DNA of 64,000 nucleotides from an uncultured Bacteroidota bacterium (GCA_963782125.1 CAWAID010000008.1:114795-178794), one strand, 5' to 3'; positions 45,382 to 63,935 are shown, counted from the first letter of the stretch. Program-made: numbers and translations. The notes: generated by a model from the letters alone, not told the origin.

Positions 45382-47569
45382 AGCTAAACAGTCTGCTCGA
45401 TTTGTCTCTATTCGTGTACCAATATTCATACTTACAGAAAAAGAGGGCAGCCATGATGTCTTCATCCTTCACAAAGCTGCATTCGGTTATAAAATTAATG
45501 GCCCCAAAAACGAGCCCGTACAAACTGGCTTTTTTATAGCACGTGTGTTTCGGAAGGGTACCGAATATGGAACAACGTTGGAGGTTGAACATTTGGGGCC
45601 GTTGCCCGACGGCGCTGTTGTAAGACGATGGGCGGCCGCACTAGTTGAGCAGATAGCTAAGCACCGGTCTTTTGCTCAAACGCTGTCTATATTTTGTGAG
45701 TTAGTCAGGGACCGGTACCCAACCATAAGTAGCCTTTCTGTTGTTTACCACTTCTTGGGCCGCTGGCTTGAATCTGAGAATTGTTTTTTGCACTTCCTGA
45801 ATGGTGTAGCCAACTTGAAAGTCCAGTCAATTGCCATGCGGACTGTTCTTCAGGCTGCCGAGGTACTACAGAGCATTCCCCTTAAGTATGCCCTCTGGTT
45901 GAACGGAGTCTTAAAAGCGCCACCAGAACTGATTACGCCGCATCACATTACTGGGTGGAAATGCGTGCTTACGACATCCGATTGGCAAACCTTATGGAGT
46001 TTTTTCAAAAAGTTGGCATCTGACTTTCCGAGGCGGCCTGAAACGCAGCATACACTACGATACATTTTAGAGCAGAGGATTCACATTAATACAGATGAAG
46101 ACTGCAATGAAATCATTAGGGTACTGAAAAGAACAAGGCTTTTATATCCGCACATTCAGGTTCAAGAAGCCCACATAGCGGCGAATAAGACGCAATTCAT
46201 AATCCGCCTTTGGCAAGAAGGCTTGCTATCCGATTTATCAGAAACTGTATTCAAAGCTCACCTTAAAGAAAGCAACGCTACGGAGCTTGCGACCGAACTT
46301 TCGGTATTAAGCTCCGCACAGCAGATTCAGTTGCTGTCGCATTCCGAGAATTACGCGAAGGAATTTCAATCCGCATCAGATAGTGCTTTCTACGACATTC
46401 TACCTCCTATTCTCTTTGTTGATATTGAAAGTGACGGAGACAAGGTTCGTGAACTGGCTTGGCATTACAAGGGTGAAACAACAGAATACACTAAGATTGA
46501 AGAGGGTATCTCTGCTCTGAATGCCATTATCGCCCGTGACAACCCAATCGTCGCAGGCCACAATATCATTCGGTTTGACCTTCCTATTCTTGAAAGTAAA
46601 GGTCTCGCAACTGAAAAGCTTGTGTTGCTGGATACGCTGCTGTTGGAAACAGTTTTGCAACCAACTCGCACCAGCCATGCGCTGCGCACCGGACACCGGG
46701 CGGCTGCTGACGTGAAGGTTACTGCTGCGCTTTTCAATTCGCAAATAGCACGCCTCTGTCTTGCCGATAATGAGCTTGTAACGGAGCTCATCAAGCTATT
46801 GCCTGCATCCATCGGCATAGGTGTTGCTGAACTCCGAAAGCAATCAATTCAGTCTTTTCTTGCCGCGCGCGACGATCTCTTCTCGGGAGATAATTTTTTC
46901 CATCGCGCATCCGAAAAAAATGCAGTGCCCGCCGAAATAGCATTTGCCATCAAAGCCAGCCGGCAGCGTTCGCAGATGGTAATTGTGCCCGAGATTTTCT
47001 GGTCGCAGCTGCTCCATTCCGGCATTTGTCTGTTTGCAAATGAAGGCCATTCATATGGTTACGTCATTTCTGCCAGAAAAGTTACCGAGCTGCAAAGTGA
47101 AATGCCGTGGCTTGCGCTTGCAGCAAAACATTACATCGGTCAATGTGCCGCAGAAGAGCGCATTCCACACCTGGCAATGCTTTCACCGTATCTACGGTTT
47201 GCACTTGAAGGGTTGGAGGCGCGCATTTGCTTCACGCTTTCAGAAGCACTCAGGCAATTTTCGGATGCCGCCATCTGTACCTCCCCTGATTTTTATTCAG
47301 CGACTCCTCTGCAACCGCTGCCCTACGCTGTGAATGCTGCGCTCATAGTAGCCCCGTTTCTTTCCCGCCAATCCGCCCACAGATTGTTGGCCGAGGTAAC
47401 GATGTCTGACCTCCTTACCATCCTGCCGGGCAGCAAGGTCTGGATGCAATTTTCAGGAGGAACCAGCCTTGTTCCGCTGGATAATGAAGACGCGTTGAGG
47501 CTAAGTGGCAAGAACCTTGCACAAGTCGGAGACTGCTGGCTGCAGCGAATAGGTCGCAATGAGATTTAA
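45269..47569 (+). CDS. Large protein with central DEDD (DnaQ-like) 3'-5' exonuclease domain; start uncertain
   Basis: Exo I ILFVDIESDGD, Exo II VAGHNIIRFDLPIL, Exo III HRAAADV. Confidence 0.6.
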   Translation: MVMEIPTSALNGNKTVICPSVTSLYLMFRLKIDARTGEAKQSARFVSIRVPIFILTEKEGSHDVFILHKAAFGYKINGPKNEPVQTGFFIARVFRKGTEYGTTLEVEHLGPLPDGAVVRRWAAALVEQIAKHRSFAQTLSIFCELVRDRYPTISSLSVVYHFLGRWLESENCFLHFLNGVANLKVQSIAMRTVLQAAEVLQSIPLKYALWLNGVLKAPPELITPHHITGWKCVLTTSDWQTLWSFFKKLASDFPRRPETQHTLRYILEQRIHINTDEDCNEIIRVLKRTRLLYPHIQVQEAHIAANKTQFIIRLWQEGLLSDLSETVFKAHLKESNATELATELSVLSSAQQIQLLSHSENYAKEFQSASDSAFYDILPPILFVDIESDGDKVRELAWHYKGETTEYTKIEEGISALNAIIARDNPIVAGHNIIRFDLPILESKGLATEKLVLLDTLLLETVLQPTRTSHALRTGHRAAADVKVTAALFNSQIARLCLADNELVTELIKLLPASIGIGVAELRKQSIQSFLAARDDLFSGDNFFHRASEKNAVPAEIAFAIKASRQRSQMVIVPEIFWSQLLHSGICLFANEGHSYGYVISARKVTELQSEMPWLALAAKHYIGQCAAEERIPHLAMLSPYLRFALEGLEARICFTLSEALRQFSDAAICTSPDFYSATPLQPLPYAVNAALIVAPFLSRQSAHRLLAEVTMSDLLTILPGSKVWMQFSGGTSLVPLDNEDALRLSGKNLAQVGDCWLQRIGRNEI

Positions 47570-48497
47570 GGCGTGGCAAAGCAGTAACCTGGATACCACA
47601 CTCTCGGTGGCCGGTATCAACAGCGTAGTAGAAATAGACTGGCTTAAGCCAGCGCCATCAATTCGTCTCCGGGCACTATTGGGTCGTGATACGCCCGGCG
47701 ATACGCAGCGAAGCGTTAACCCAGAATCATTCTATCGCAGCCTTTACTGGACGTACGCAGCTAAGCTCATCAGCCGCCTTAAAGAATTATTGCCAATTGT
47801 GCTGTTGATAGAAGCAGAGGAAGAGCTGGACAAAGTGGCGGGCCTCTTTAGAAGTCGCGGCTATTATGTGCCGGAGCGCAAAGCCGGGCTGCGCAGAAAG
47901 CTGGAATTGCTTGCCAGCGCAGGTAAGAAACAAGCGCTACTGCCATTGTCTTCGTCACAGCTAGCCGAAGTACTTCAATGCCACTTGGATACGCCTTTTC
48001 AATTTGTCAGAGAATCTCTCAGGCTTAGCGAGTCGGCGCTGCTCACGCCGCGTAAGAACGGAGAAGGGTATCGTGAAACGTCTGAACATTCCGGTGAAGA
48101 CGCGCCAGCGCATCAGGATGAAGACGAAAAGAATGACGAAACCGAAATGCCAAAGCGTTCTTTAAAGGCGCAAAATGCCTTCGCGGGCTTACAGCGAGAG
48201 CTCTTACTTGTACAGCATCAGGCATCCGCCATTATAGCTTTGAACCAAGCCAACATCTATACGCTGCTTGACCCCCGCGTTGGCGACTATCCAGGGTTGA
48301 ATGAGGAATATGGCATCGGTATTCAACGATGCGCAACATGGGAGCGAGAAGAAGATTACAAGCGCGATTTGGAGAAAGCACAGGTTTTCTTTGGAAGCGT
48401 TGGCGTTCCGGACGAAGCCACAAAGCTTAGCCCTGAAGAAGCTATTGAACGTCTGAGGCCTATCTTCCTAGAAGCGAAAGATTCTTTGGCGAGATGA
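47559..48497 (+). CDS. Hypothetical protein with acidic linker, translationally coupled to the exonuclease gene
   Basis: ATG overlaps the upstream stop; no known domain. Confidence 0.35.
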   Translation: MRFKAWQSSNLDTTLSVAGINSVVEIDWLKPAPSIRLRALLGRDTPGDTQRSVNPESFYRSLYWTYAAKLISRLKELLPIVLLIEAEEELDKVAGLFRSRGYYVPERKAGLRRKLELLASAGKKQALLPLSSSQLAEVLQCHLDTPFQFVRESLRLSESALLTPRKNGEGYRETSEHSGEDAPAHQDEDEKNDETEMPKRSLKAQNAFAGLQRELLLVQHQASAIIALNQANIYTLLDPRVGDYPGLNEEYGIGIQRCATWEREEDYKRDLEKAQVFFGSVGVPDEATKLSPEEAIERLRPIFLEAKDSLAR

Positions 48498-48540
48498 GCA
48501 GCTAAGATACTTTGACATCATCCTTCCACAGGAGCAACAT

Positions 48541-49725
48541 GTGCTGGTATCGCTGCCTACGGGTGGCGGAAAGAGCGTGCTGTTTCAGGGGCCGGCGCTC
48601 CTGCAAGGCGCACTAACCAGCCGGCTTTCCATTGTAATCGTGCCGCTGAAGTCGCTTATGGAAGACCAGGTGGACAGTCTGGCAAAGCGTGGGTTTTACA
48701 CAAGCGTTGATTACTTGAGCGGCGACCGGCAGCAATACGAAAATCGGGAGGTGTTGCGCCGCCTGGCAGGTGGAGAGATTACGTTGCTGTACATTACGCC
48801 GGAACGATTTCGCTCCCGGGCGTTTGTGACGGCGCTGCAAACGCGCATGATGGTGGATTCGCGCCTGGCCTACTTTGTATTTGATGAGGCACATTGCATT
48901 TCGCAATGGGGTCAGGAGTTCCGTCCCGACTTCTTTCATGCATACACCATTGTAAAGGAATATCTCCGTGCTGTGCCGGATAGCCTCACGTTGCTATTAT
49001 TTTCTGCCACTGTTTCAGAACAGGTTTTTTTAGACATCAGCCGCAACATGCCGCGCATTGAGCGCTTAGACCTTTTCCCTAGTGGATACAACCCAGTGCG
49101 CGACCATATCAGGATGAGCTTCTTCAAAGACTTTATGGAAGAGGACAGGTTATCGCCCATCATAGAGCGACTAAATGCCGATGGCTTTAATCCCGCCTCT
49201 AGCCGCGCTATCATCTTTACTACTAGCAGAAGCCAAGCAGAAGAAGGCGCGGCCGCGCTTTCTGACAAGCTTACTGAACTGGATTGTGCATCAGGCGATG
49301 CCAATGCATTTAGTGTTGCACATTATCACGCTGGCCTTAGTGGGGAGCAACGTGAAGAAGTTTATGCTTCTTATAAAAAAGATGATGGCGCGCTGCCAAT
49401 CATTTTTGCTACCAAGGCTTTTGGAATGGGCGTCGATATCGGCAATATCCACCATGTATTTCACTTTTCACCACCATCGGCTTTTGAAGACTTCCTACAG
49501 GAAGTAGGTCGTGCCGGGCGCAATAAAGAAATGCTTGAAGATGCAGGTTTTGGGAAGGAGTCTCGGCCTATCGATGCGGTAACGCTACTAAGCCGGGGAG
49601 ACTTTAGCGCAATTAAGCTGCGCATGAAAAAAACAAAGCTTGCATGGTCGGATATAGGTATGGCACAGACGGCAATTCATGCTCATCTTCAGCAGCTTTG
49701 GCGCCTTAAAGTCAGATGCCGATAA
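48541..49725 (+). CDS. RecQ-like SF2 DNA helicase core (no Q-motif/N-terminus in frame; C-terminal region possibly in the +1 frame at 49679-49966)
   Basis: Motifs LPTGGGKS, FDEAHCISQWGQEFRPDF, FSAT, IIFTTSR, ATKAFGMGVD and QEVGRAGR. Confidence 0.75.
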   Translation: MLVSLPTGGGKSVLFQGPALLQGALTSRLSIVIVPLKSLMEDQVDSLAKRGFYTSVDYLSGDRQQYENREVLRRLAGGEITLLYITPERFRSRAFVTALQTRMMVDSRLAYFVFDEAHCISQWGQEFRPDFFHAYTIVKEYLRAVPDSLTLLLFSATVSEQVFLDISRNMPRIERLDLFPSGYNPVRDHIRMSFFKDFMEEDRLSPIIERLNADGFNPASSRAIIFTTSRSQAEEGAAALSDKLTELDCASGDANAFSVAHYHAGLSGEQREEVYASYKKDDGALPIIFATKAFGMGVDIGNIHHVFHFSPPSAFEDFLQEVGRAGRNKEMLEDAGFGKESRPIDAVTLLSRGDFSAIKLRMKKTKLAWSDIGMAQTAIHAHLQQLWRLKVRCR

Positions 49726-50018: not shown

Positions 50019-50834
50019 TTGCATTGCAGTACAATGGAAGTAGTTAATAAGATGGCAGCGCTGCATGGAGAACGTTGCATTGAAATTGCTCACTACATCT
50101 ATCTCGTGCCATCTGTCAGTGTAGATGAAGAGTTTACAGCTTTTAAAAGGGTGGGCGATAACCGCCTTCTGGTGCGTTTACATTGGGCGGTCCTACTAGC
50201 AACGGCAATCCTGAAACGTTGTCCGCATCTTGATGAGTATCGAATGGGAAGCGCAGAACTGGATAAACTGGCAGAGGCCTGTTTGCATGAGGCAGTACTA
50301 TACCTGCCAGAGCGCATTAGAATATCAGCTATTGCTCAGGAGCAGTTTGGCACTGACCTCAAGCGCCGGAGAAAACATGTGTTTACCCTGCTGCGCAAAC
50401 TAATGGGCATACGGGTGAAGAGTGAGATCGCGGGTATCACACCGGGCGTTGGCAACAAGCAGCACGCTGAAGTTGTCCAGCTGATTTATAATGGTGGAAA
50501 ATCACCAACGGCCTGGGTGGAAGAGCTTCAGAAATTCAGCAATGCGGCTGCCAAACTGTGTGGTTGGGCCTACGACAACTCGCGGCAGGATGTGACAGGC
50601 AAAACGTCGCCATTTGAGTATGTCCAGAAATACCTGCCCGCTGAAGGAATTGCCTATCTGGAAGACCTGCTACACATCACAGGTCTGTTTGGGTACATAA
50701 AAACGGCCGGCAGCATCATGCCTACCGGCATTGGCGTTACACTGCTGTCTGATGAAGCGATTAAGGAGCGGGACAGCCAGCACATTGACAGCAATGTGTT
50801 TGCATCGTATGAGGAGTGGGGCTGGAAGGGATGA
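50019..50834 (+). CDS. Hypothetical protein ending at the IS21 boundary; possibly the N-terminal part of the IS-disrupted UvrD-like helicase gene (same frame)
   Basis: Stop TGA at 50832-34 abuts the IS terminal repeat; same reading frame as the helicase ORF beyond the IS. Confidence 0.4.
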   Translation: MHCSTMEVVNKMAALHGERCIEIAHYIYLVPSVSVDEEFTAFKRVGDNRLLVRLHWAVLLATAILKRCPHLDEYRMGSAELDKLAEACLHEAVLYLPERIRISAIAQEQFGTDLKRRRKHVFTLLRKLMGIRVKSEIAGITPGVGNKQHAEVVQLIYNGGKSPTAWVEELQKFSNAAAKLCGWAYDNSRQDVTGKTSPFEYVQKYLPAEGIAYLEDLLHITGLFGYIKTAGSIMPTGIGVTLLSDEAIKERDSQHIDSNVFASYEEWGWKG

Positions 50835-51101
50835 TGAAGTTGACCCACTAAGGATGAAGCAAACTGACCCACCTTCTGACTGGCGAAGATTTGGCGTTTT
50901 TGCTGGCGAAGAGGTGAGTGGATTTGATGTTTTGTTGAGTGTTTAAAAATGTGATTTCTGCATTTTTCTTCTGGATCGGTTCGTGACTAAAGGTCTATAG
51001 AAATTTGATTTGTTGATCCGGGGAGCATGCGGATAGCTTTGTCCACAAAAATTTTTAGGCTGGCCCCGCAGCCTTAGTGAAGGGCCAGCCGTATAGAAAA
51101 T

Positions 51102-51863
51102 TTATGTGGATAAAGCGGGCAGGGTGCCGTCGTTCTGTACGCTCTCGGACATTTCTGGCTTTTTGCGACGCATCGATTCTCCGTGCAGATCCAAACGATG
51201 CGCGTTGTGAACGATTCTGTCCAGGATTGCGTCGGCGATCGTTTGCTCACCAATCAACTCATACCATTTGGCTACCGGTACCTGTGAGGTAATGATTAGC
51301 GAGGCCTTTCCATGCCGGTCTTCAATAAGCTCCATCAGGATAGCACGGCTTTGCGCATCGAAGGGCTGGATGCCAAAGTCATCGAGGATTAGTAGATGCT
51401 GCCGTTCAATGCGGGTCACTTCTTTGAGATAGGAGCCATCGGCCTTTGCCATTTTCAGACGGGCGAAAAGCTTGGGTACATTAAAGTAGGCTACCCGATA
51501 ACCGCGGCTGCAGGCATGATGGCCAAGAGCAGATGCGATGTAGCTTTTGCCAATCCCGGTGCTGCCGGTGATCAGGATGTTTTCATTCCGGTCAATAAAG
51601 CTGCAGTCGGCAAAGCGCAGGATCTGGTTCTTGTCCGCATTGCGGTCTGTATGGTAGTACAGGTCCTCCAGCGCTGCTTTGTAGCGGAAGCGGGCGTTGC
51701 GGATCTTGAGGTCAATGCCCCGGTTCTGCCGCTCATCCCATTCTGCATCTACCAGATGTGCGACGATCTGGTCCGCCGTGAAGGTTTCTGCTTTGCCTGC
51801 TTCAAGGCTGGTTTTGAAGGCACGGAACATGCCGTGGAACTTCATCTTTTCTGAGCTTGTCAA
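51102..51863 (-). CDS. istB: IS21-family helper ATPase IstB
   Basis: Walker A ITGSTGIGKSYIASALGHHACSRG; Walker B LLILDDFG. Confidence 0.9.
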   Translation of the reverse strand: MTSSEKMKFHGMFRAFKTSLEAGKAETFTADQIVAHLVDAEWDERQNRGIDLKIRNARFRYKAALEDLYYHTDRNADKNQILRFADCSFIDRNENILITGSTGIGKSYIASALGHHACSRGYRVAYFNVPKLFARLKMAKADGSYLKEVTRIERQHLLILDDFGIQPFDAQSRAILMELIEDRHGKASLIITSQVPVAKWYELIGEQTIADAILDRIVHNAHRLDLHGESMRRKKPEMSESVQNDGTLPALST

Positions 51864-51899
51864 GTGTTTCTGTGTTCATGGTTACATTGATTTTATTGG

Positions 51900-53456
51900 T
51901 TAAGACTTGTTGTAATACTGTTCTCCTCTGATGTTGTCGTGTGCCGGCATCGTGAGCTGCTGCAGCTCATCTTCATCCTGCTGCGTATCCAGTCCTTTTT
52001 GCAGAATGCGCTCTATGATCTTGTAGTTATAGATGCCATAGCCTAAAGCCCGCTGGCAGGCTTTGATCAGCCGCTCATTGCCGACCTTTTTGGCGAAGCT
52101 TAAGATGCCCAGACAGGATTTATACGCCTGTTCCGGATGCTGTTTGCGATCCAGAACTTTCTGGATGTAGACCACTACGTCCGGGTCTATATCAGCAGCC
52201 CAGCTCAGGAAGCGCTGTGGCGTCCATTCTGTAACGAAGCGATGGGCGGAGGCCAGATGATCCGGGTCTGTAGTATAATGAAACGAACTCTTCACCCGGT
52301 TGTGGAGGGCAATGCGCTCGTAGCCGCTGTAGATCTCCACCGTCTTGTTGCTATAAAGAAGCTTTACTTTTTTGCCGATGTACTTGTACGGAACGCTGTA
52401 GAAGTGGCGATCGGCTCCAAGGGTCACATGCCCGTTCTTCATCACGGTGGCAAAGCTGGATTGCTTGATCTCGAAGCGTGTCGCGGGTAGCGGCATGAGT
52501 GTGCTGCGCTCCACTTCTTCAAATTGCTGGCGGCGGCTGTAGCTGCGGCCTTTTAAGTGGGCGTTGTTGTGCACCTCAAGCGCTTGCAGAATGGCTACAT
52601 TAAGTGCTTCCAGTGTTGTGAATCGCTGATCACGGAGCTTGCTGTAGATGCGCGCGTAAACGATTTTTACGGCATTCTCCACATGCGCCTTGTCTTTGGG
52701 GCGATAGGCTCTGGCCGGCAGGATGGTGGTGCCGTAATGCTCTGCAAACACAGCGTAGCTCTCATTCAAAACCGGCTCGTACTTACTGCTTTTGGTTACT
52801 GCGCTCTTCAGGTTGTCAGGAACAATAGCTGCCGGCACGCCGCCGATGAAGTGAAGGGCACCTTCGCAAGCGCCAATAAAATCTTCTTTCTGCTGACTCA
52901 TTACAGCCTCTACGTAGGTGAGCTGGCTGGCGCCCAGAATGCCTACGAACACTTCTACCGGCTTTAGCTCTCCGCTTTCCGGGTCGGTAATGTGGAGCTT
53001 GTCGCCGGCGAAGTCAACATATAGCTTGTCGCCGGCCTTGTGGTCTATGCGCATCGATGGATTGACGCTTGCTTTCCACTGCCTGTAGTAAGTGTTGAAC
53101 TGGCTTAGGCACAGGCCTTCCGGATTGTCCCGCCGATATTGTTCCCAGAGCACCTGACGGGTAGCGCCTTTGCGCTTCAGCGCTTTATCTATATCGGGAA
53201 ACAGGCTGTGCAACTGTGCTACCCGTTCGCTGGAGGGTGCAACTTGTGGCTTGATGAACAGGTCCTCCAGGTCTTTATCGCTGAGGGTATCAAGCTCTTT
53301 GAAGCTCAATCCGCTGTCAGTGAAAGCCTGGAAGTACCGCTTTAATGTATTGCGGGAGGTGCCGGTTTGTTCGGCGATGAGGCGCTTGCTTCGTCCCTGG
53401 TCGAGCAGGCGTAAGGCGTGTCTGATCCTGGTCATGCTTATCGGATTATTGGCCAT
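51900..53456 (-). CDS. istA: IS21-family transposase IstA
   Basis: N-terminal HTH followed by an rve-type DDE domain; 518 aa, immediately upstream of istB. Confidence 0.9.
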   Translation of the reverse strand: MANNPISMTRIRHALRLLDQGRSKRLIAEQTGTSRNTLKRYFQAFTDSGLSFKELDTLSDKDLEDLFIKPQVAPSSERVAQLHSLFPDIDKALKRKGATRQVLWEQYRRDNPEGLCLSQFNTYYRQWKASVNPSMRIDHKAGDKLYVDFAGDKLHITDPESGELKPVEVFVGILGASQLTYVEAVMSQQKEDFIGACEGALHFIGGVPAAIVPDNLKSAVTKSSKYEPVLNESYAVFAEHYGTTILPARAYRPKDKAHVENAVKIVYARIYSKLRDQRFTTLEALNVAILQALEVHNNAHLKGRSYSRRQQFEEVERSTLMPLPATRFEIKQSSFATVMKNGHVTLGADRHFYSVPYKYIGKKVKLLYSNKTVEIYSGYERIALHNRVKSSFHYTTDPDHLASAHRFVTEWTPQRFLSWAADIDPDVVVYIQKVLDRKQHPEQAYKSCLGILSFAKKVGNERLIKACQRALGYGIYNYKIIERILQKGLDTQQDEDELQQLTMPAHDNIRGEQYYNKS

Positions 53457-53675
53457 CAGGGCTAAGTTTTTAAGAAACTTAACCTAGACTGCCTCCGCCT
53501 AAAGCATCAGCTCAAATCTTACTTCCGGGTGGGTCAGTTTGCACCGGCGAGGGTGGGTCAGTTTGGACCGGCGCAGGTGGGTCAGTTTGAATCATCCTGG
53601 GTGGGTCAGCTTAAATCGGCGCGGGTGGGTCAGTTTGACCGTTCCCTCCAGTGGGGCAAGCTGCGTGAGCTAAAG

Positions 53676-55880
53676 ATGATTGCTTTGCAGGCAATGTCAG
53701 AAATGCCTCTCGGCGAGCAGGACGGTTTTATCAAAGCATACTTTAAGGCAAGCAACTTTGAGGAAATACTTGCGCTTCTTCACGAGACTTTTGGCGAAAT
53801 CCAGCGCATAAGATTTCCCAATCTACCTGAAGACAAAATTGAGCTCCATCCTGCCATGCAGGCGTTTGCCGAAGAAACCTTGAAGGCACAAGTCGCTGGT
53901 TTAAGCGAAGAGCAGAAAGCAGTTTATGATGCGCCGCTGGGCCAGCATATTTCTGTTATTGCCGGGCCAGGCTCTGGCAAGACGCATACACTTGCTTTAC
54001 GCGTAGCTCGCCTCATCCAGCAAGAAGACGTGTCCGCGGCAGATATTCTGGTCGTTGCCTACAATCGCGCAGTAGTAACTGAGCTAAAAGCGCGGCTGCA
54101 ACAAACCTTTCGTGCGTTAGGGTATCAGGATATTACAAAGCCGTTGCGCATCTGCACCTATGCGGAACTTGCGCTCAAGTTAAACCCAGATATAAGGAAG
54201 CAGCCCTTTAAGACAATTGAAGAACCGAATGTATGGGAGCGCGACCTCTGCAATAGACTGCAGGACAACCCCGCTCATGCGCTGATGCGGTTGGGCGCAG
54301 TGAAGTATTTATTGGTGGACGAGTTTCAGGACGCCACAGAGCTACGAATAGAAATTCTATCACGGCTTATAAAGCTGAGCGATGGCAAGCTGTTTGTAAT
54401 CGGCGACCCTAATCAAAGCATTTATGGCTTTGAACGAACTGCTGCTGGTTCGGCGATTGACCCATTGCCTTATTACGAATTGCTAGAAAAAGTATTTAGC
54501 CCATTAGCGCACTATGCGCTGACGCAAAACTTTCGATCTATGCCGGCAATTGTAGCAGCCAGCAATGAGCTTATATCACATTGGATACCACGCTACCAGG
54601 GATTGAAGCCGCTGGTCACAAAGCGGGAGCCGTTCCCAAATATGCCACGGGAATATTGTACGATAAGGCATCATGCAGAAGGCCTGCGTTGGTGGGATGA
54701 ACTTAAGAAATTGCTAGTTGAAACAGGTGACGAGTTGCAAAAAGGCGACAAACGTGAGCCTCAACGCTATCGGCAGATTGCTATTCTGTTCCGTAGCAAC
54801 AATGAGGTTTTCAGGGCAAAGGCAAGACTTTCTGAGGCTGGAATTGCAGGCATCCGGATACGCGTGCAGGGGAATCAGCCCACCGAGTTTATGCGCTTTC
54901 GCGAATGCCACTTCTTCCTACATAAGTATGCGCAAGAGGCGGCCCGTGAAACGCCTATACCAAACGATTTCCGTGACCAAATCAATAAGCTGATAACGGA
55001 ACAAAAGATAGCCTGCCCGGCATGGAACCAATTCTACTTATCAGTTGTTCATGCTCTCGTGCTGCAATATTTAGACGATGCGCCCGAGGATATACAGAAT
55101 ACTTACACGGCCCTATGCGACCACATCTGCGAAAGCACGCGGCGCGATGATGGGCAGCTTTGGAAGGTGTATGAAAAGTATAAGGACTTTGTTGACCCAG
55201 GCATGAATGAGACTGAAGTATTGCTAACAACAATGCACCGGGTTAAAGGTCTTGAGTTTGATGCCGTAATAGTGCCTCCGTCGTTCTCGGAGTTGCCGTT
55301 CATGCCCGGCACCGAAGATGAAGCAGTGATTCATGACCTTATAGACGAAGAGCGAAGGCTGATGTACGTTGCGTATTCGCGGGCAAAGTACCGGCTAGTA
55401 GTGATTCAGGGGGAACGCGAAGCCGCACTGCTAAGTCAGATACAGTACACGCCAGATGACAAGGTGGTAGGGCAAATTGGGCGGCCACTTAAGGATGGAT
55501 TAAAAGATGTAAATATTAGTTGGGGCGCAAAGGCTTTTTGCTTTTCCGGAAACGCTGCTCACGGTATTCTTTCCAACAACGAAATAGGACTAAGGGTGGG
55601 TGCGGGAGAACGGGTTACGCTAATTAGAAGGGTCAACAATTTTGGTACATTTTACGAGGTAAAAAATAGCTCTGCGCAACATATTGCGACGCTGTCACAA
55701 AACGCCGTTGCCGCCCTCACGGAACCAAAATATGATGGCATTTATGTAAACGAAGTAATTGTCTGGACAGAAGAATCAGCTGCAACCGCGGGATTTGCAG
55801 ACCAGTGGTGTGAAGAAGCCAGAACCCAGGGTTATATTTATGTTGTTGCCCTTGCAGGCTATAGCAAGCCTGTTGCCTGA
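53676..55880 (+). CDS. UvrD/Rep-like SF1 helicase
   Basis: Motifs AGPGSGKTHT, LLVDEFQDAT, VIGDPNQSIY, HRVKGLEFD and VAYSRAKYRL. The ORF upstream of MIALQ is just translation of the IS repeats. Confidence 0.8.
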   Translation: MIALQAMSEMPLGEQDGFIKAYFKASNFEEILALLHETFGEIQRIRFPNLPEDKIELHPAMQAFAEETLKAQVAGLSEEQKAVYDAPLGQHISVIAGPGSGKTHTLALRVARLIQQEDVSAADILVVAYNRAVVTELKARLQQTFRALGYQDITKPLRICTYAELALKLNPDIRKQPFKTIEEPNVWERDLCNRLQDNPAHALMRLGAVKYLLVDEFQDATELRIEILSRLIKLSDGKLFVIGDPNQSIYGFERTAAGSAIDPLPYYELLEKVFSPLAHYALTQNFRSMPAIVAASNELISHWIPRYQGLKPLVTKREPFPNMPREYCTIRHHAEGLRWWDELKKLLVETGDELQKGDKREPQRYRQIAILFRSNNEVFRAKARLSEAGIAGIRIRVQGNQPTEFMRFRECHFFLHKYAQEAARETPIPNDFRDQINKLITEQKIACPAWNQFYLSVVHALVLQYLDDAPEDIQNTYTALCDHICESTRRDDGQLWKVYEKYKDFVDPGMNETEVLLTTMHRVKGLEFDAVIVPPSFSELPFMPGTEDEAVIHDLIDEERRLMYVAYSRAKYRLVVIQGEREAALLSQIQYTPDDKVVGQIGRPLKDGLKDVNISWGAKAFCFSGNAAHGILSNNEIGLRVGAGERVTLIRRVNNFGTFYEVKNSSAQHIATLSQNAVAALTEPKYDGIYVNEVIVWTEESAATAGFADQWCEEARTQGYIYVVALAGYSKPVA

Positions 55881-55927
55881 GCTATATTCATGGTCCGAAC
55901 CCAACTATTAAATAAATTCTCGTTTGA

Positions 55928-56326
55928 ATGGCTGGCAAAAAAGAAAGCTACTGGATTCCGCTTGCCGACCTGATGACGGTCTTAATGGTGATATTCCTAT
56001 TTATGGCTATCTCCTACATGATTGTGATTAAAAACAAGCAAAAGGATAAAGACACAATCATTAAAGACTTTCAGGCTGCGAAGGTGGAACTATTGAAGGA
56101 GCTGCAGGTGCAGTTCAACGAAGACTTTAAGACAACAAAGTGGAATGCTGTGCTGGACTCCAATAATCTGTCAATCCGCTTTGTAGACGAGCGTATTCTT
56201 TTTGACTACAACAAGAGTGAGCTAAAAGAGGATTTCAAAAAAATTCTTGCGGATTTCCTTCCTCGATATTTACAAATAATCCTCAAAGAAAAGTACGCGG
56301 ATAAGATTGCTGAAGGTTCGAATTGA
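55928..56326 (+). CDS. MotB/ZorB-like protein, N-terminal TM part (frameshift at ~56310)
   Basis: WIPLADLMTVLMVIFLFMAIS MotB-type TM anchor. Confidence 0.55.
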   Translation: MAGKKESYWIPLADLMTVLMVIFLFMAISYMIVIKNKQKDKDTIIKDFQAAKVELLKELQVQFNEDFKTTKWNAVLDSNNLSIRFVDERILFDYNKSELKEDFKKILADFLPRYLQIILKEKYADKIAEGSN

Positions 56327-56636
56327 GGGTCATACTAGTTCTGAGGGTGATTACATCTATAATCTCCAGCTTTCACAAGACCGGACGCGGAATGTGATGC
56401 GCTTTCTACTTGCGCTTGACTATTTTCAAAAGCTAGGGCAAAAAGACAAAGACAGATTGCAATACTGGCTTACCGCAAATGGACTTTCTTTTGGCAGGCA
56501 ATTGGACAAAACAGGTCGCGAGATTTACAGAACAGGCGCCCCAGCCGACCCTACTACTTGCCGGCGGGTGGAATTCAGAATTGTAACCGCAAGTGACGAG
56601 CTGATTAAAAAAGCTGTTCAGAAACTTTCAAACTAA
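56307..56636 (+). CDS. MotB/ZorB-like protein, OmpA-like peptidoglycan-binding part
   Basis: VRIEGHTSSEGDYIYNLQLSQDRTRNVMRFL...RRVEFRIV OmpA/MotB motifs. Confidence 0.65.
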   Translation: MLKVRIEGHTSSEGDYIYNLQLSQDRTRNVMRFLLALDYFQKLGQKDKDRLQYWLTANGLSFGRQLDKTGREIYRTGAPADPTTCRRVEFRIVTASDELIKKAVQKLSN

Positions 56637-56646
56637 GATACGACCC

Positions 56647-57444
56647 ATGCAGACCGTGAAGTTCATTGTTGACTGGTTGCCCTATTTGTTTATGGCGGCC
56701 TATCTCACCTGGGCGTTTAGCTATGTACTAAGGGCAAAGCGAAATCCCGAACGAGTGAACAAGTATCTGCTGGACATGATACCCCAGATTTTTACCACAA
56801 TCGGTATTCTGGGCACGTTCCTCGGTATTGCCGTCGGTCTATACTTCTTTGATGTAAAGGACATGGAGGGAAGCATTCCAATTCTCCTGGGAGGGTTAAA
56901 GACTGCGTTTTTCGCATCCATTGCAGGCATCGTCTGCTACTTCTTTTTTTCAAAATGGATAGCGCGGGTACAGAAGCAAAACGAGCACGGTAAGCTTAGT
57001 GATGAAGCAACTATTCTCAACAAGTTGGTTGATTCAATGAATGATTTCAAAGGGGAAATGCTACGGGTAATGACATCAAAAGATGAAGCAAATAATCAGG
57101 CTACTATTGGCAATTTGCTCCGTGAAATATGCGATGAATCAAAGAAACAGTCTGCGGCCTTACAGACTTTTTCTACAGATTTAGCCGTCACTATCACGGC
57201 GGGCTTTGAAGAAATCTTCAACAATCCAAAAGAAGGTGTCGTTTATGAATTGCAGGGCCTGCGAACCGAAATTGAGTCTTTAGGTAACAAGCTCAATGAC
57301 CCGACAACAGAGATGACGCAAAACGTCGTGAAAGACTTAGAAGCGGCTTTGGAGCGAATGGTTGCTGAAGTTCAAAACCTCCGTCTCCGGTTCCGCAAAA
57401 GCCGAGATGGAGGGATTGGCGAAATTGCTCGGACAGGCTGGTGA
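56647..57444 (+). CDS. MotA/ExbB/ZorA-like proton-channel domain protein
   Basis: TM helices with GILGTFLGIAVGL and LKTAFFASIAGIVCYF typical of the MotA_ExbB family. Confidence 0.65.
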   Translation: MQTVKFIVDWLPYLFMAAYLTWAFSYVLRAKRNPERVNKYLLDMIPQIFTTIGILGTFLGIAVGLYFFDVKDMEGSIPILLGGLKTAFFASIAGIVCYFFFSKWIARVQKQNEHGKLSDEATILNKLVDSMNDFKGEMLRVMTSKDEANNQATIGNLLREICDESKKQSAALQTFSTDLAVTITAGFEEIFNNPKEGVVYELQGLRTEIESLGNKLNDPTTEMTQNVVKDLEAALERMVAEVQNLRLRFRKSRDGGIGEIARTGW

Positions 57445-58207
57445 AACACTTGTTTCGTTCCCTGCTACACTGCAAACAATGACCGATAATCTACAGGAAA
57501 ATTTCAGAAGTCTGCAAGGCACGGTAGAGCAAATTGCTTCCCAGACCATCAGTCAATCGTCTGCTGCAAACGAAGCGATGACGGCACGCATGGAAGGCGC
57601 ATCCACACAAATGCATCAGCTTATTCAGGGCTTGCAGGCTGGGCAGGGCGAGCTTGTAGAGCAGCACCAGAATAATCTGGCTTTGTCCGACAGGCTGGTT
57701 GCCGCGTTCAACAGCAGCATCACGAATATGGAGGCGCTTGCCAAGGGTGTAAATCAAACAATGAGCAAGTTTTCCGGGGTGGAAACGGAGCTTTCAAAAA
57801 CCATTAGTCAGCTCACAAGCGTGGCATCAAATGTGAACAATGCTAGTCGTGAGTTTGGACAAGCGCAACAACAATTTGCCGGTCAGAATGCGCAATTTCT
57901 ACAACAGAATAAAGCGAACCTGGAAGGCATACAGGAGGCACTTTCAAAAGCCAAGGAAGTATCCGCAGACTATGCGCAGAAGTTTGGAATTATTGAGCAG
58001 GGCCTAAAAGGCATCTTCGCAGAAATACAAAGCGGACTGGATGGCTACAGCACTACGATTAATAAGAACCTCGCGGGCTATTTAGACAAATACAGTGAGA
58101 GCATGTCCAGTGCAGTGCAGTCGTTGGCAGGAGCCACGGAGCAGCAGCGTGAAGTGTTGGAAGACCTGACTGACGAGTTGACAAAGTTTAGCACACGCCG
58201 CAATTAA
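57362..58207 (+). CDS. Long coiled-coil protein; probably the frameshifted C-terminal tail of the MotA-like gene (ZorA-type tail)
   Basis: Low-complexity Q/A/L-rich heptad-like sequence; overlaps the MotA ORF end by 83 nt in another frame. Confidence 0.5.
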   Translation: MLKFKTSVSGSAKAEMEGLAKLLGQAGETLVSFPATLQTMTDNLQENFRSLQGTVEQIASQTISQSSAANEAMTARMEGASTQMHQLIQGLQAGQGELVEQHQNNLALSDRLVAAFNSSITNMEALAKGVNQTMSKFSGVETELSKTISQLTSVASNVNNASREFGQAQQQFAGQNAQFLQQNKANLEGIQEALSKAKEVSADYAQKFGIIEQGLKGIFAEIQSGLDGYSTTINKNLAGYLDKYSESMSSAVQSLAGATEQQREVLEDLTDELTKFSTRRN

Positions 58208-58220
58208 TCACCACTTCATT

Positions 58221-59660
58221 ATGTCCGGCGCAAAAAGCCTTTTAGGAGTATCATTCTCTGCGCCCACATTCCGTAGCAGCGGGGAAAAATGCTTTTCAGC
58301 ACAGGCAATACGCACGCTGGACATGAGGGTCAATACGCTGACGGAGTTGGCGGATAAGATAGGCGTGGCAGCTACAGACCTGCGTGATGAGTCCGGTATC
58401 CCGATTGTGTTCCGCAAGTTTAAGGCTGCAGTTGGCTCCCCGCAGGAATTACGATTGAAGAATCGGGAAGTCAGAACGCTTGCTCATGCCTTGGATTATT
58501 CAGAAAAGGGATTAACCGCCATCCTGGGAGCCACCCCAGAATTGGAACGGGCGCTGCGCATAATTACCCTTCAATGGAAAGACGGCTTCATTACAGCCTT
58601 GCTCGGCTGCTATCTCAAAAACTGGAACGCTTCCCCTGAAACATCACAACGGCTTTTGTATCAGACTATTTCCGGGCGACTTCGAGATTATGCCGGTAAG
58701 CGACCAGCCTATCTGGCTATGAAGGCTGGCTCCCGCTATTTTATGCCTTCTAATGGCGACCTCCTTTTAGGTTCTGACCTGGCGATAAAAAATGTCTCTA
58801 TTGCAACCGCAGCAAAATGTATCGCGCTGCCGGAATCATGGATGATGTACCCTTACTTCCACGGCGTCATTCTCACTTTCTACGAAAAGAACTCAGGTAA
58901 GCTTACGCGAATATTACCAGACATTGAAGCTGCATTGAGACTTCATGCCGCCAATACAAAGGGCTCATGGACATCGCTCTTGCTGATAAGCAAGCTCATA
59001 GGGGAAGCCAATATGCCGGATAGGGCAGGGCTACAGGAGCAGGTGAAGCTGCTTGCCTTTTCTTTAGTCGGCGACCCTGCCGTTGTGGCAAACTGGACAG
59101 CACCCTCAGGCAAGGCAGCACATGAGACAAAGCTCATTGAACAAGCAAGACAGATTCTGAATGAGTGGATTACCCGCCAGTTCATTACCGTATTTTTTGA
59201 AACCTGCCTGGACGACACGCGCCGGAAGGCATTTTGGCTAAGTATGGCAAAACGGGTTTCGGCGTTTAAGGTGTTTGGCTCGCAATCCGTTCGTGCTGCA
59301 TTAAAGCGTGATGAACGAGTAAAAGACTTTGTTGATAACAGGTATCAGGTGAGCGGCGGAAGCACTAATGTTGCGGCCATATTGATGCATGTCGGCGAGT
59401 ATGCGCTTGTAGAATTTAGCGACACGGGCTGGGCGTTTTATGCCTACCGGATTGGCAGCAAATACTGTCCGCGCATGGACGAATATTATCACAACATAGG
59501 TGAGCTGCGCAATACCGGATTGCCCAGACTCTTATATCGTCAAGGCCGCCAAATGGGCAATCTCTCTGACGAAGGAAGTTTGAATCATCACCCTAAAGGA
59601 GAAATAAGCTGGGAAGAAGTGTTTAGATACTGGATAAGTCAAAAAATTGGCAACGCATGA
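58221..59660 (+). CDS. Hypothetical protein in the ZorC position
   Basis: 479 aa with no confidently recognised domain; overlaps the start of the SNF2 gene. Confidence 0.4.
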   Translation: MSGAKSLLGVSFSAPTFRSSGEKCFSAQAIRTLDMRVNTLTELADKIGVAATDLRDESGIPIVFRKFKAAVGSPQELRLKNREVRTLAHALDYSEKGLTAILGATPELERALRIITLQWKDGFITALLGCYLKNWNASPETSQRLLYQTISGRLRDYAGKRPAYLAMKAGSRYFMPSNGDLLLGSDLAIKNVSIATAAKCIALPESWMMYPYFHGVILTFYEKNSGKLTRILPDIEAALRLHAANTKGSWTSLLLISKLIGEANMPDRAGLQEQVKLLAFSLVGDPAVVANWTAPSGKAAHETKLIEQARQILNEWITRQFITVFFETCLDDTRRKAFWLSMAKRVSAFKVFGSQSVRAALKRDERVKDFVDNRYQVSGGSTNVAAILMHVGEYALVEFSDTGWAFYAYRIGSKYCPRMDEYYHNIGELRNTGLPRLLYRQGRQMGNLSDEGSLNHHPKGEISWEEVFRYWISQKIGNA

Positions 59661-62491
59661 TACAATGGAAATTCGCCGACGGTCAGTTCACTTTCTTCAT
59701 CCCAGATGGTGGCGGGTTAGCCATGCCTTTGTCAACTTGGAACAGAGAAGAGTTGCTTTCTCAGGCGGTGCTGTTGGAAGAGCTTGCTGACAATGGTTTT
59801 GCAACATCATCGGAAGTTGGTTATGAAGCCGATGCAGAAGCGGTGCTGCGTATGAGCGAATTAGACCAGCGCATTCTTGGCCTGCCCCAAACGTATCCAT
59901 ATGCTATCAGCATACTTTCTGACGGTCAGCTCAATCAATCTTCTTTCCGCTTCGTTTGCCGTTTCTCCGATTTTGTACCTGGTGGCAATCTGCTCCATAT
60001 AATTCGTGATGGGCCTTTACTTACGGCGGATGATAAGACCTACTTGCTTTCCGCGGCACATTTCGCCGTTTGCGAAGCGTTGGATGGCTTTAATGCCATG
60101 CCGGATTCGGAGCACAGCTTTAAGGAACACCTGCTCCACTTCTCAAAAATCAAATCGCTTGCTGATGAAGCCGGCATTCATCTGGATAGCTATTTGCAAG
60201 GCCAGGAGCTTTTGGTACCTCAGAAAATCAAAGCAGATTTTCAGGTAGCGAGTGATGGCACGCTGGAAGTATTTCCGGTAGTTGATGTTGCTGATAACTC
60301 AAGCTTCGTCAGGGCCTACGATAAATTTCCTGCTGCGCGCGAAATCTATCCGATTGCAGACAATACGGGTACAACAACACGGGTGGTAATTGATGAGGCG
60401 CAACAGGCACAGCTTCAGCAGATGAAGCGTGTGCGTAGGGTGCGTGATAGAGCGCAGATTGCCGCGATTATAAAGAATCCAACAGAATACTTTTCTCCTG
60501 AAACGGATTTGTCAGAGTTCTACAGCGAGCGCGTTATTGAGCTTGGCATTTACAAGCCAAAATTTTATCCCTTCGTCTGCCCATACAAGTCGGAATGGAT
60601 ACCCGGCTTTGCGATACAAGCTGCAGGTAGCGCTGAACAGCGCGTAACATTTGAATCAGAAGAATCGCTAAATGAGTTTGAGACTGCAGTGAATGCGGCA
60701 CAGGATTCCGGCGCAGAGACGTTTGTCTGGGAGGGCGCAGATGTACCGGTAGCTGGAGCTGCTGCGCTTATTCGCGTTGCACGCAAGCAATTTGCTCAGC
60801 CAGAAAAGCCGCTTCCCGACGACACGACAGACAGCGAGGGGCGAAAGGTGCTCATTGTGTATGAAAATGCCGACGCACTTGAATATGCGCCAGGGCACGC
60901 TGCGGACGTTTACGACTATCACGGCTTTACCCCTGTCCAAAACCTCGCTTCCGGCATTACGCTAAAGGAACACCAGGTTGCAGGTGTGGCTTGGCTTCAA
61001 ACCCTTTGCAAGGCCCGCCATCCTGGATGCTTGCTGGCAGATGACATGGGCCTGGGAAAGACCCTGCAGCTTCTCTACTTTATCGAGTGGCACGCTCGGC
61101 ATTTTAATCCAGAAGGAAAGCCTTATCTCGTTGTTGCCCCGGTGAGCCTTCTGGAAAACTGGGAAGCCGAGTACAAGCGGTTTTTCTCGCCTTGCACACT
61201 CAGGCTTAATCCGCTTCACGGCGGCGTGCAGGTCGGTAAATCGTTCAGTCCGGATACGGTCGCTGCCTTACAGCAGCCACAGATAATCCTTACCAACTAC
61301 GAGACGATGCGCACATACCAGCTTAACCTCTGCGCTGTGAATTATGCGGTAGTTGTGTTGGATGAAGCCCAAAAGATAAAAACGCCCGGCACGCTCATTA
61401 CTAATGTTGTCAAAGCCATCAAGGCTGACTTCAGGATAGCCATGACAGGCACACCGATTGAGAACACATTCGTAGACCTGTGGTGCATTATGGACTTCTC
61501 TGTACCGGGCCTGCTTGGCTTCGCAAAAGACTTTTCAAAGCAATATCAGCAACCACTGAAAGAAGAAGGAACCGATGTTGCGGCATTAGGGCAACAGTTA
61601 CACGAACGTACAGGCATTTTCCTTAAAAGGAGGATGAAAAGGGACGTGCTTAAAGACCTTCCCGAAAAGGTGCCCCAAATTATAAGGCGTGCAATGCCGC
61701 CAGTTCAAATTCAGCGCTATCGGGAGGCGGTCGGGGCCATTAAAGAAGGTAATGATTCGAGCCCCGAGACAGGCGCGGATATGCTGCGTGTCCTTCATGC
61801 AATCCGCGATATATCGGACCATCCTTTCCTTGCAAACGGTGAGGCAGAAGGGAAAAACACAGCAGAGCTAATTGCAACCTCGGCTAAGTTGCAATTGACT
61901 GTAGAACTGTTGCACATTATTCGTGATGCAGGGGAAAAGGTCATTGTATTTGCCGACCGGAAAGGAACACAAAGGATTTTGCAACAGGCCATCCGAGATA
62001 CATTTGGCATCACGCTCAGCATCATCAATGGCGACACACCGACCACCCGTAGGCCGCAAGGCGCTAATCATCAGAGTCGCCAGCAAACTATTGACCGGTT
62101 TAGCTCGCAAAAGGGATTTGGCGTAATAATCATGTCGCCACTTGCCGCAGGGGTGGGTCTCAACGTTACTGCCGCGAATCACGTGATTCATTATTCTCGT
62201 CATTGGAATCCGGCAAAAGAAGAGCAGGCTACTGACCGAGCGTACCGAATAGGCCAAACAAAGGCAGTGCATGTGTATTACCCGATGGCTGTATTTCCTG
62301 AACAGGTAACGGATGGACAGGTGACAATAGCCCGCGCGTTTGATGAGGTGCTGGATGCATTACTTTCCCGTAAAATGTCGCTTGCTACTTCTACATTGTA
62401 CCCCACGGAGCAAACAGAAGTCAGGGCAGATGAGATGATGCAGGGCTTATTCGGTAAGGAAGTATTGCCTGTAAATGAGCTTGCTGCGTAA
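59657..62491 (+). CDS. SNF2-family helicase with ~400-aa N-terminal domain (ZorD-like)
   Basis: Motifs LKEHQVAGVAWL, LADDMGLGKTLQ, VVLDEAQKIK, MTGTPIEN and HYSRHWNPAKEEQATDRAYRIGQ. Confidence 0.85.
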   Translation: MIQWKFADGQFTFFIPDGGGLAMPLSTWNREELLSQAVLLEELADNGFATSSEVGYEADAEAVLRMSELDQRILGLPQTYPYAISILSDGQLNQSSFRFVCRFSDFVPGGNLLHIIRDGPLLTADDKTYLLSAAHFAVCEALDGFNAMPDSEHSFKEHLLHFSKIKSLADEAGIHLDSYLQGQELLVPQKIKADFQVASDGTLEVFPVVDVADNSSFVRAYDKFPAAREIYPIADNTGTTTRVVIDEAQQAQLQQMKRVRRVRDRAQIAAIIKNPTEYFSPETDLSEFYSERVIELGIYKPKFYPFVCPYKSEWIPGFAIQAAGSAEQRVTFESEESLNEFETAVNAAQDSGAETFVWEGADVPVAGAAALIRVARKQFAQPEKPLPDDTTDSEGRKVLIVYENADALEYAPGHAADVYDYHGFTPVQNLASGITLKEHQVAGVAWLQTLCKARHPGCLLADDMGLGKTLQLLYFIEWHARHFNPEGKPYLVVAPVSLLENWEAEYKRFFSPCTLRLNPLHGGVQVGKSFSPDTVAALQQPQIILTNYETMRTYQLNLCAVNYAVVVLDEAQKIKTPGTLITNVVKAIKADFRIAMTGTPIENTFVDLWCIMDFSVPGLLGFAKDFSKQYQQPLKEEGTDVAALGQQLHERTGIFLKRRMKRDVLKDLPEKVPQIIRRAMPPVQIQRYREAVGAIKEGNDSSPETGADMLRVLHAIRDISDHPFLANGEAEGKNTAELIATSAKLQLTVELLHIIRDAGEKVIVFADRKGTQRILQQAIRDTFGITLSIINGDTPTTRRPQGANHQSRQQTIDRFSSQKGFGVIIMSPLAAGVGLNVTAANHVIHYSRHWNPAKEEQATDRAYRIGQTKAVHVYYPMAVFPEQVTDGQVTIARAFDEVLDALLSRKMSLATSTLYPTEQTEVRADEMMQGLFGKEVLPVNELAA

Positions 62492-63449: not shown

Positions 63450-63935
63450 TTACTTTTTGCTTGACCTGCCACTCTTAGGCCAAACTTGTTCTCCTATAGC
63501 AATAAATTCACGCACAGGCATATTTCTTCGTGGCTTACCATTTTTCGGTCTCGGCTTCTTAAAATGCGCTTCTATGGTTTTGTTGTCTGCCTTATATATG
63601 GCGGTTACCTCATAGTCAGAGCCAAGTAATACCAATAATACGTAGTGCCAGGTTTTGTCATCCTGGCTGGCTGCAATAGTTGGCACGCGCTGACTCTTGT
63701 TGTTGCGAATAACTCGCGTCTTAACCTGCACTTCGTTTCCATTGCAGTCAATGAGGTCATGTCCAGCATTCCTAGCGCCTTTAAACTTGCATTTCAACTT
63801 TATTGCAGCTTCGTATTCTCCGAGTTCACCGGTAATCCCTAGGGGCCTTTCCGTTAGTGCATAGTATGCAATTGCAGACGCTTTTGCCGTTTGAAATATC
63901 TCGCCTATCGAAGCTAATTGCTTACCCGAGTACAT
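63450..63935 (-). CDS. Small PD-(D/E)xK nuclease-like protein
   Basis: GELGEYEAAIKL...HDLID...NEVQVKT fits a D-x(n)-E-x-K active-site arrangement. Confidence 0.45.
   Translation of the reverse strand: MYSGKQLASIGEIFQTAKASAIAYYALTERPLGITGELGEYEAAIKLKCKFKGARNAGHDLIDCNGNEVQVKTRVIRNNKSQRVPTIAASQDDKTWHYVLLVLLGSDYEVTAIYKADNKTIEAHFKKPRPKNGKPRRNMPVREFIAIGEQVWPKSGRSSKK

Follow-up and report, generated by a model that had tools for sequence, protein, structure and literature searches.

A probable type I Zorya operon with reversed motor genes and two apparent frameshifts in a Bacteroidota contig

What kind of system is encoded by a cluster of motor-like and helicase-like genes whose first two members appear to be broken, and is the breakage part of how that system works? 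The question is raised by positions 55928-62491 of a 64-kb stretch of DNA from an uncultured Bacteroidota bacterium (GCA_963782125.1, CAWAID010000008.1:114795-178794); this whole stretch is referred to as the window, and all coordinates are positions within it. An original prediction, made from the sequence, had described the cluster as a Zorya-like module, and searches with PADLOC, Pfam and the PDB identify it as Zorya. Our essential contention is that the locus is very probably a type I Zorya operon, belonging to a lineage with the gene order zorB-zorA-zorC-zorD, and that the two frameshifts lie outside the mechanism of the system, being most likely errors in the consensus sequence. Six open reading frames (ORFs) on the + strand make up four genes, of which zorB and zorA are each split in two; their coordinates and description in the original prediction were correct:

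zorB ORF 1: 55928-56326, + strand, 132 residues, MotB/OmpA-like
zorB ORF 2: 56307-56636, + strand, 109 residues, MotB/OmpA-like
zorA ORF 1: 56647-57444, + strand, 265 residues, MotA-like head
zorA ORF 2: 57362-58207, + strand, 281 residues, helical tail
zorC: 58221-59660, + strand, 479 residues, intact, EH-signature DNA-binding protein
zorD: 59657-62491, + strand, 944 residues, open and intact, SNF2-family ATPase/nuclease

The second ORF of each split pair sits in the +1 frame relative to the first. Because the intergenic gaps measure only 10 and 13 nucleotides, and zorC and zorD overlap by 4 nucleotides, we regard the genes as a tight operon. A scan of the operon for sigma-70 promoters and terminators found none above the background of shuffled sequence, the consensus used being probably inapplicable to a Bacteroidota host.

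The original prediction had proposed profile searches for ZorA, ZorB, ZorC and ZorD, and all four families were matched, giving a gene content well outside what chance could produce. The 479-residue protein that it had left as an unknown in the ZorC position is a true ZorC: it scores 68.6 bits against the Pfam EH_Signature family (PF15611, cut-off 27.5) and E 2e-18 against the PADLOC ZorC1 profile, and it matches E. coli ZorC (PDB 8r68) with E 3e-7, in an alignment that spans residues 305-413 only. Five residues, D332, R335, W339, E398 and H456, are invariant in an alignment of 20 sequences and appear to correspond, by similarity of numbering only, to the residue network of E. coli ZorC (D332, R335, W339, E400 and H443; PMC11946911). 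The 944-residue SNF2 protein in the ZorD position is indeed ZorD, with 1021.6 bits on PADLOC ZorD1 (PDLC00631), E 1e-127 to E. coli ZorD (PDB 8qy7), Pfam matches to SNF2-rel_dom and Helicase_C, and the motifs GLGKT at 465 and DEAQ at 569. The effector features of type I, an EH signature in ZorC and an SNF2 ATPase with a DEAQ box in ZorD, are both present.

The motor features of type I, a MotA/ExbB-like head with a long helical tail in ZorA and a transmembrane aspartate with an OmpA domain in ZorB, are recovered once one base is removed from each gene. In zorB (55928-56636, + strand) a single extra base splits the gene, and its deletion restores a 235-residue ZorB that is colinear with its homologues; the two halves match consecutive positions of the PADLOC ZorB profile, 11-135 and then 135-236. 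The repaired protein scores 239 bits on ZorB2 (PDLC00641) and 198 bits on ZorB1 (PDLC00609), has Pfam matches to OmpA (39.5 bits) and MotB_plug, and among solved structures matches the type II ZorB of Sulfuricurvum kujiense (8vvi_A, E 3e-33) and E. coli ZorB (8qyd_F, E 7.5e-13). Asp14, within the motif LADLMT, aligns with Asp26 of E. coli ZorB in the 8qyd_F alignment, and the product is predicted to be a MotB-like membrane anchor with an OmpA-type peptidoglycan-binding domain.

In zorA (56647-58207, + strand) one extra A splits the gene, and its deletion gives a 519-residue ZorA, likewise colinear with its homologues. Taken separately in PADLOC, the first ORF matches the head of ZorA and the second matches ZorA tails. 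The repaired protein scores 129 bits on ZorA2 (PDLC00635) and about 50 bits on the ZorA1 profiles, and matches type II ZorA (8vvi_F, E 1e-13) and E. coli ZorA (8qyd_A, E 3e-6). That the MotA-like and coiled-coil ORFs are one gene, as originally proposed, is borne out by homologues that are single proteins of 508-528 residues and by an identical, intact allele of 519 residues: protein P0036 has the same sequence as the repaired ZorA throughout (100% identity). The ZorA family is large, with 690 clusters reaching E<=1e-10, and nearly all of the best 120 have lengths of 500-528 residues. The original prediction had allowed that the protein in the ZorC position might lack ZorC similarity and the module match a known non-defence MotAB-SNF2 system, or that the MotA-like and coiled-coil ORFs might be separate genes; neither was found.

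An AlphaFold2 model of the ZorA monomer, with a mean predicted local distance difference test (pLDDT) score of 55.9, was used for secondary structure alone. The head (residues 1-110) is modelled with pLDDT 70-81, and the remaining 400 or so residues are helical with low confidence; overall the model is about 93% helical and includes helices of 99 and 194 residues. Such a predicted tail is as expected for a protein that would form a pentameric coiled coil in the real complex. A long coiled-coil tail had been anticipated, and the helical character stands; the length of about 280 residues given for it does not, since the helical part of the repaired protein extends for about 400 residues after approximately residue 110. 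If those residues formed a single unbroken helix, the tail would by simple arithmetic measure roughly 55-60 nm, compared with the 70 nm or so reported for E. coli. Elsewhere, a contig from a metagenome-assembled genome (MAG) labelled Pseudomonadota (L003) carries at 3-1805 a ZorA of the same kind, at least 600 residues long, with tandem duplications inside its tail made up of repeated ...NVLRDLYKESTKQSNSLQ.FS.DLALTISAGFEQILNNP... units; these duplications are a case of natural tail lengthening.

The canonical order of Zorya genes is zorA-zorB-zorC-zorD, and the order found here is zorB-zorA-zorC-zorD. In a search with the ZorC family, restricted to one genome per species and with ORFs classified against reference proteins, 34 loci were recovered. 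About 20 of these contain intact zorB (about 240 residues), zorA (508-517 residues), zorC and zorD (about 1090 residues) in the same B-A-C-D order as the window, with carriers that include Pedobacter, Chryseobacterium limigenitum, Elizabethkingia miricola, Moheibacter, Limnovirga and many Bacteroidota MAGs; a contig from a Logan assembly (L001) is also an intact example. Approximately nine loci have zorA (about 590-613 residues), zorB (about 230 residues) and zorC in the canonical A-B order, and the rest are partial or degraded. A ZorB tree splits the two gene orders cleanly and puts the window, together with L001, on a deep branch of B-A type; midpoint-rooted trees of ZorC and ZorD do not discriminate between B-A and A-B as the ancestral order. 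A megablast search of the 6.6-kb module against the PLSDB plasmids and complete E. coli genomes returned no match. Judged from these sequences, a lineage with reversed motor genes appears to be widespread, mostly in Bacteroidota.

The highest-scoring PADLOC profiles for ZorA are labelled type II in the B-A lineage and type I in its A-B sisters. Yet over 537 residues the repaired ZorA of the window shares 40% identity with the A-B-type ZorA of locus L002, and the two arrangements are therefore to be seen as sister lineages rather than as the result of a remote type II motor having been swapped in. The original prediction had raised the possibility of a new subtype on the strength of the B-A order and the shorter tail. 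Both features are genuine, but their novelty was overstated, as they are common to about 20 of the 34 related species-level loci. Hu et al., whose surveys of Zorya phylogeny and of tail length are the main ones published, left non-canonical gene arrangements out of both (PMC11946911), and these orders were exclusions from a survey, not part of the definition of the family (PMC11946911); the B-A lineage therefore probably went unexamined. A literature search, incomplete in its coverage, found no paper describing the B-A arrangement.

The closest functional reference is the type I system of E. coli, EcZorI (PDB 8qyd for ZorAB, 8r68 for ZorC and 8qy7 for ZorD), which has the same four families in one operon. 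The two systems share the channel aspartate and OmpA-like domain of ZorB, a long helical ZorA tail, the EH-signature residues of ZorC and a ZorD with an SNF2 core and DEAQ box that has no Mrr domain. They differ in gene order (zorABCD in EcZorI), in the length of ZorA (519 residues in the window against 729) and of its tail (about 400 against about 500), and in the absence from the window ZorA of some 90 N-terminal residues, such that query residue 41 aligns with E. coli residue 131. Similarity of the motor proteins is weak (E 3e-6 for ZorA and 7.5e-13 for ZorB), and the N-terminal domain of the window ZorD is about 140 residues shorter. The type II ZorAB of S. kujiense (8VVI; Mariano et al. 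2025, PMC11890865) provides the best matches to the window motor proteins among solved structures, just as ZorA2 and ZorB2 are their best PADLOC profiles, and its ZorA is similarly short and without an N-terminal extension. However, type II systems are ordered A-B and employ the HNH nickase ZorE where the window has ZorC and ZorD, and the window tail is longer (in a ZorA of 519 against 378 residues). No match to ZorE was found among the ORFs of the operon and its flanks that were scanned with PADLOC.

The zorABCD loci found through ZorC in Bacteroidota and other genomes, L002, L006, L007 and L010 among them, encode ZorC and ZorD that are about 40-55% identical to the window proteins, and ZorA and ZorB that are 40% and 37% identical over their full lengths. 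Their ZorA differ in being about 590-610 residues long, with an N-terminal extension, and in scoring best on ZorA1 profiles, and their ZorD carry Mrr_cat. More distantly, the flagellar MotAB and the ExbBD/TolQR 5:2 motors have in common with the window a MotA/ExbB-type channel, a MotB-type plug, a transmembrane aspartate and an OmpA-like domain, but they lack a long tail in the cytoplasm, are not partnered by ZorC or ZorD and do not sit in a defence island.

In proposing how the system would act, we draw each step from homology with E. coli, where Zorya is a proton-driven ZorA5B2 complex, anchored to peptidoglycan, that senses perturbation of the envelope and through its tail recruits ZorC and ZorD near the point of phage entry (PMC11946911). 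By analogy, ZorA and ZorB of the window would assemble an inner-membrane, proton-driven motor of 5:2 stoichiometry, which the OmpA-like domain of ZorB would anchor to peptidoglycan and from which a pentameric helical ZorA tail would project into the cytoplasm. An infecting phage would perturb the envelope and so activate the motor. The active tail would then recruit ZorC, binding DNA by way of its EH signature, and ZorD, as SNF2 ATPase and nuclease, and together these would degrade incoming DNA close to the site of entry.

We also need to explain the two frameshifts. The junctions were placed by alignment with 11 intact homologues, and a further relative (L039, 83% identical) brings the comparison to 12:

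zorB frameshift site: 56309-56316, + strand, GCTGAAGG, one extra base (A or G), junction between ...KYADKIAE and VRIEGHT
zorA frameshift site: 57364-57370, + strand, GCTGAAG, one extra A (57368 or 57369), junction between ...ERMVAE and FKTSVSG

These positions agree with those suggested originally (about 56310 and about 57365-57440), the second falling at the lower end of its range. All 12 homologues, L039 among them, are in frame at both sites, and the site sequences differ between relatives; L039 reads GCA GAG GTG in frame at the zorB site, and the homologues read ...M(I/V)xE followed by FKTS at the zorA site. The frames beyond the shifts are fully open, for 107 codons in zorB and 279 codons in zorA. 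The 0 frame at the shift contains no stop, rare or stall codon and no repeat tract longer than AA, and the 0-frame product of zorA continues for 25 more codons.

Three contigs of Logan run ERR11523665 overlap the window. The first (L038), from the same strain and encoding P0036, is the same as positions 56538-58681 at all 2143 bases but lacks the extra A of zorA, reading GCTGAGTTC where the window has GCTGAAGTTC (GCTGAG against GCTGAAG). The second (L040) agrees with 53842-56533 apart from three positions, all inside a span of 32 nucleotides at the zorB site, where it reads GCT-AAGGTTCAAATT...TCTAGAGGG and the window reads GCTGAAGGTTCGAATT...TCT-GAGGG. The third (L041) is identical to the window over 645 nucleotides. 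In total there are four discordances in 5480 compared bases, confined to 56309-56345 and 57364-57373; all occur at or between CTGAG motifs adjoining GTTC, in zorB and zorA, and each is either a G-to-A substitution or an added A. Three of the seven CTGAG sites in the compared stretch are affected, and both insertions of the window fall within a 9-mer, TTGCTGAAG, that is found nowhere else in the 64 kb.

This pattern fits context-dependent noise in reads or consensus, perhaps tied to base modification. Nanopore errors are linked to methylated motifs. The deposited contig is 200 kb long and spans an IS21-family insertion sequence (IS), which agrees with consensus noise in a presumed long-read assembly. 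The open frames beyond both shifts agree with it too, as does another split gene in the island, the junction of which falls between bounds that enclose two A7 runs. The presence in the island of a gene for DNA hypermodification may also bear on discordances linked to motifs. Noise is favoured because random mutation would not be expected to place two changes in a shared 9-mer context, nor two assemblies of one population to disagree only there. From these comparisons we consider it probable that the extra bases are consensus errors at sites that are hard to call, and doubtful, if conceivable, that they are real and recent lesions or variants within the population; that they are deliberate in any way seems highly unlikely.

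Several broader rules were tried for the motifs and rejected. As a general mark of frameshifts, through methylation-linked error at an Eco57I-type site, CTGAAG/GCTGAAG fails in that the other 19 copies of GCTGAAG lie in uninterrupted ORFs or non-coding DNA. An apparent depletion of GCTGAG by restriction avoidance (19 observed against 39 expected from dinucleotide shuffles) disappears against a higher-order expectation of 18.6. Systematic conversion of TTGCTGAG, TGAGTTC and TGAGGTTC was also discarded, as unaltered copies persist in intact genes.

The most serious challenge comes from the possibility that the operon is truly decaying, with zorB and zorA as recent pseudogenes and a ZorD that has lost its Mrr domain, so that this strain would have no working system; selection may have acted against a motor that was costly or autoimmune. 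We think this improbable overall, though it deserves a hearing, and several observations do weigh against the account that we prefer. Neither the deposited sequence nor L040 has zorB in frame, the shift in L040 being of a different kind; of the two zorA versions, it may be the intact one that is noisy; and there is no motif rule, other copies of TTGCTGAG, GCTGAAG and TGAGTTC lying in intact genes. Decay in the island is real, as the helicase gene upstream is split by the IS21 element, and an AAA_21 ATPase elsewhere in the island is split as well. The proposed mechanism, moreover, rests on homology at 20-40% identity to the E. coli proteins. Finally, Mrr_cat (PF04471) is present in 118 of the 119 closest ZorD homologues and lacking from that of the window, which favours pseudogenisation: the protein ends in ...LPVNELAA, exactly where the C-terminal Mrr_cat domain begins in an alignment of homologues, and a tblastn search of the window, with Mrr domains taken from three homologues, turned up no trace of one. 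The difference amounts to about 430 nucleotides and so cannot be a base-calling error; to judge by the alignments it is a real departure from nearly all close relatives, exceptional within the clade, that may reflect decay and may leave this copy of ZorD weakened. On the other side, E. coli ZorD works without Mrr, its nuclease activity residing in the SNF2-containing C-terminal domain (PMC11946911), and loss of Mrr is for that reason not necessarily disabling. An allele identical over 2143 nucleotides has an intact zorA; the two versions of zorB differ at three positions within 32 nucleotides and nowhere else in 2.7 kb, which resembles noise and not inheritance; neither shift is followed by stops or further damage; and two independent insertions in one 9-nucleotide context are very unlikely to result from random mutation.

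The shared context might instead invite the idea that the shifts are deliberate, by programmed +1 ribosomal frameshifting or by a sequence-specific, reversible switch at TTGCTGA(A)G acting on both motor genes. Both shifts are +1, both occur within an identical 9-mer unique to these sites in the window, and assemblies of the same sample disagree at these sites only. Nevertheless, none of the 12 homologues is shifted at either site and the sites themselves vary between relatives; the 0 frame offers neither a stop nor a rare codon, and no repeat longer than AA; the zorA product simply runs on for 25 codons; and the intact allele needs no recoding. Programmed recoding is not supported, because all homologues are in frame at both sites, and deliberate shifting by either route is very hard to credit. 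It is scarcely more plausible that the insertions are real and were made by a sequence-specific process that toggles the Zorya motor genes within the population, whether by modifying or damaging the DNA at directed sites or as a reversible switch. More remote still is the suggestion that this is not Zorya at all, and is instead a distinct stator-helicase system, an option left open by the original prediction, or a non-defence MotAB-type motor placed by chance beside an SNF2 helicase. It could draw on the non-canonical B-A order, on a Pfam MotA_ExbB score that is barely at the cut-off for the split N-terminal ORF (22.9 bits against 22.9) and below it for repaired ZorA (20.0), and on motor proteins that score best on type II-labelled profiles beside effectors of type I. 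Against this, all four Zorya families are matched strongly and specifically, synteny of the four genes extends to about 20 genomes, ZorA retains its full-length identity with sister loci of canonical A-B-C-D order, and the neighbourhood is a defence island; the gene content is that of type I and was detected with standard PADLOC profiles of 2023, and on these grounds the idea of a separate stator-helicase system fails.

A second ZorD without Mrr, of 943 residues, occurs at 3224-6055 of L003, where a CHASE2 histidine kinase then follows.

The operon is located in what its gene content identifies as a defence island, and the following features were noted in the window around it:

T9SS (type IX secretion system) sorting domain: 9361-10389
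Split AAA_21 ATPase: 26037-26489 and 26525-27316, followed by an RloB-like protein at 27319-28062
Protein with a 5-hmdU DNA kinase helical domain: 35651-36679, E 4e-109, adjoining the Thoeris pair
ThsB-TIR (Thoeris): 36642-37136
ThsA (Thoeris): 38347-39612, 575 bits
DpdF/PsyrT/RecQ-like DEAD helicase: 48541-49725
IS21-family element: about 50837-53650, with istA at 51900-53456 and istB at 51102-51863, both - strand
DUF6998 protein: 63450-63935, - strand, a match to PADLOC's type II methyl-directed restriction enzyme profile (E 2e-22), convergent with zorD

The T9SS sorting domain makes a Bacteroidota host probable. The IS21 element has multiple 24-nucleotide terminal repeats (GGTGGGTCAGTTTG...) and splits one gene into an N-terminal part of 271 residues that matches no family (50019-50834) and a C-terminal part that is a UvrD/GajB-like helicase (about 53650-55880); the first 45 or so codons of the ORF annotated at 53529-55880 are translated IS terminal repeats. 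Directly upstream of this split gene, at 45269-49725, proteins of 766 residues (with a weak DEDDh-like PADLOC match) and 312 residues, neither with a Pfam family, precede the DEAD helicase, and the set may be an uncharacterised multi-gene defence operon. The AAA_21 ATPase, whose frame changes in the interval with the two homopolymers, could owe its split to an indel of the assembly, or it could be a genuine pseudogene belonging to a defence pair. Exact matching of the ZorC and RloB proteins of the window against a contig index yielded nothing. The island also holds a PDC-S33 candidate, and L041 shows an ApeA-like HEPN protein just past the end of the window. A near-identical 20-nucleotide stretch, AGGGAGCCGCTGAAGGTGAA, occurs twice, at 5055-5075 and 8229-8249, about 3.2 kb apart, which suggests that some gene segment or element is repeated towards the left of the window.

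The locus is a known system in an under-described lineage. Taken alone it adds little, as standard profiles would call it type I Zorya. The frameshifts offer a caution for genome scans, in that what looks like a pseudogene in a metagenome-assembled contig can stem from an artefact of the consensus, and such artefacts can cluster at certain contexts. The lineage is of some value as well. It is conceivable, though unlikely, that zorBACD systems, with a short ZorA that has no N-terminal extension, make up a Zorya subtype not yet described and with a function of its own. Their ZorA is about 200 residues shorter than that of E. coli, and the natural variation among them in tail length, in the N-terminus of ZorA and in the presence or absence of Mrr in ZorD could serve to test how the ZorA tail recruits ZorC and ZorD.

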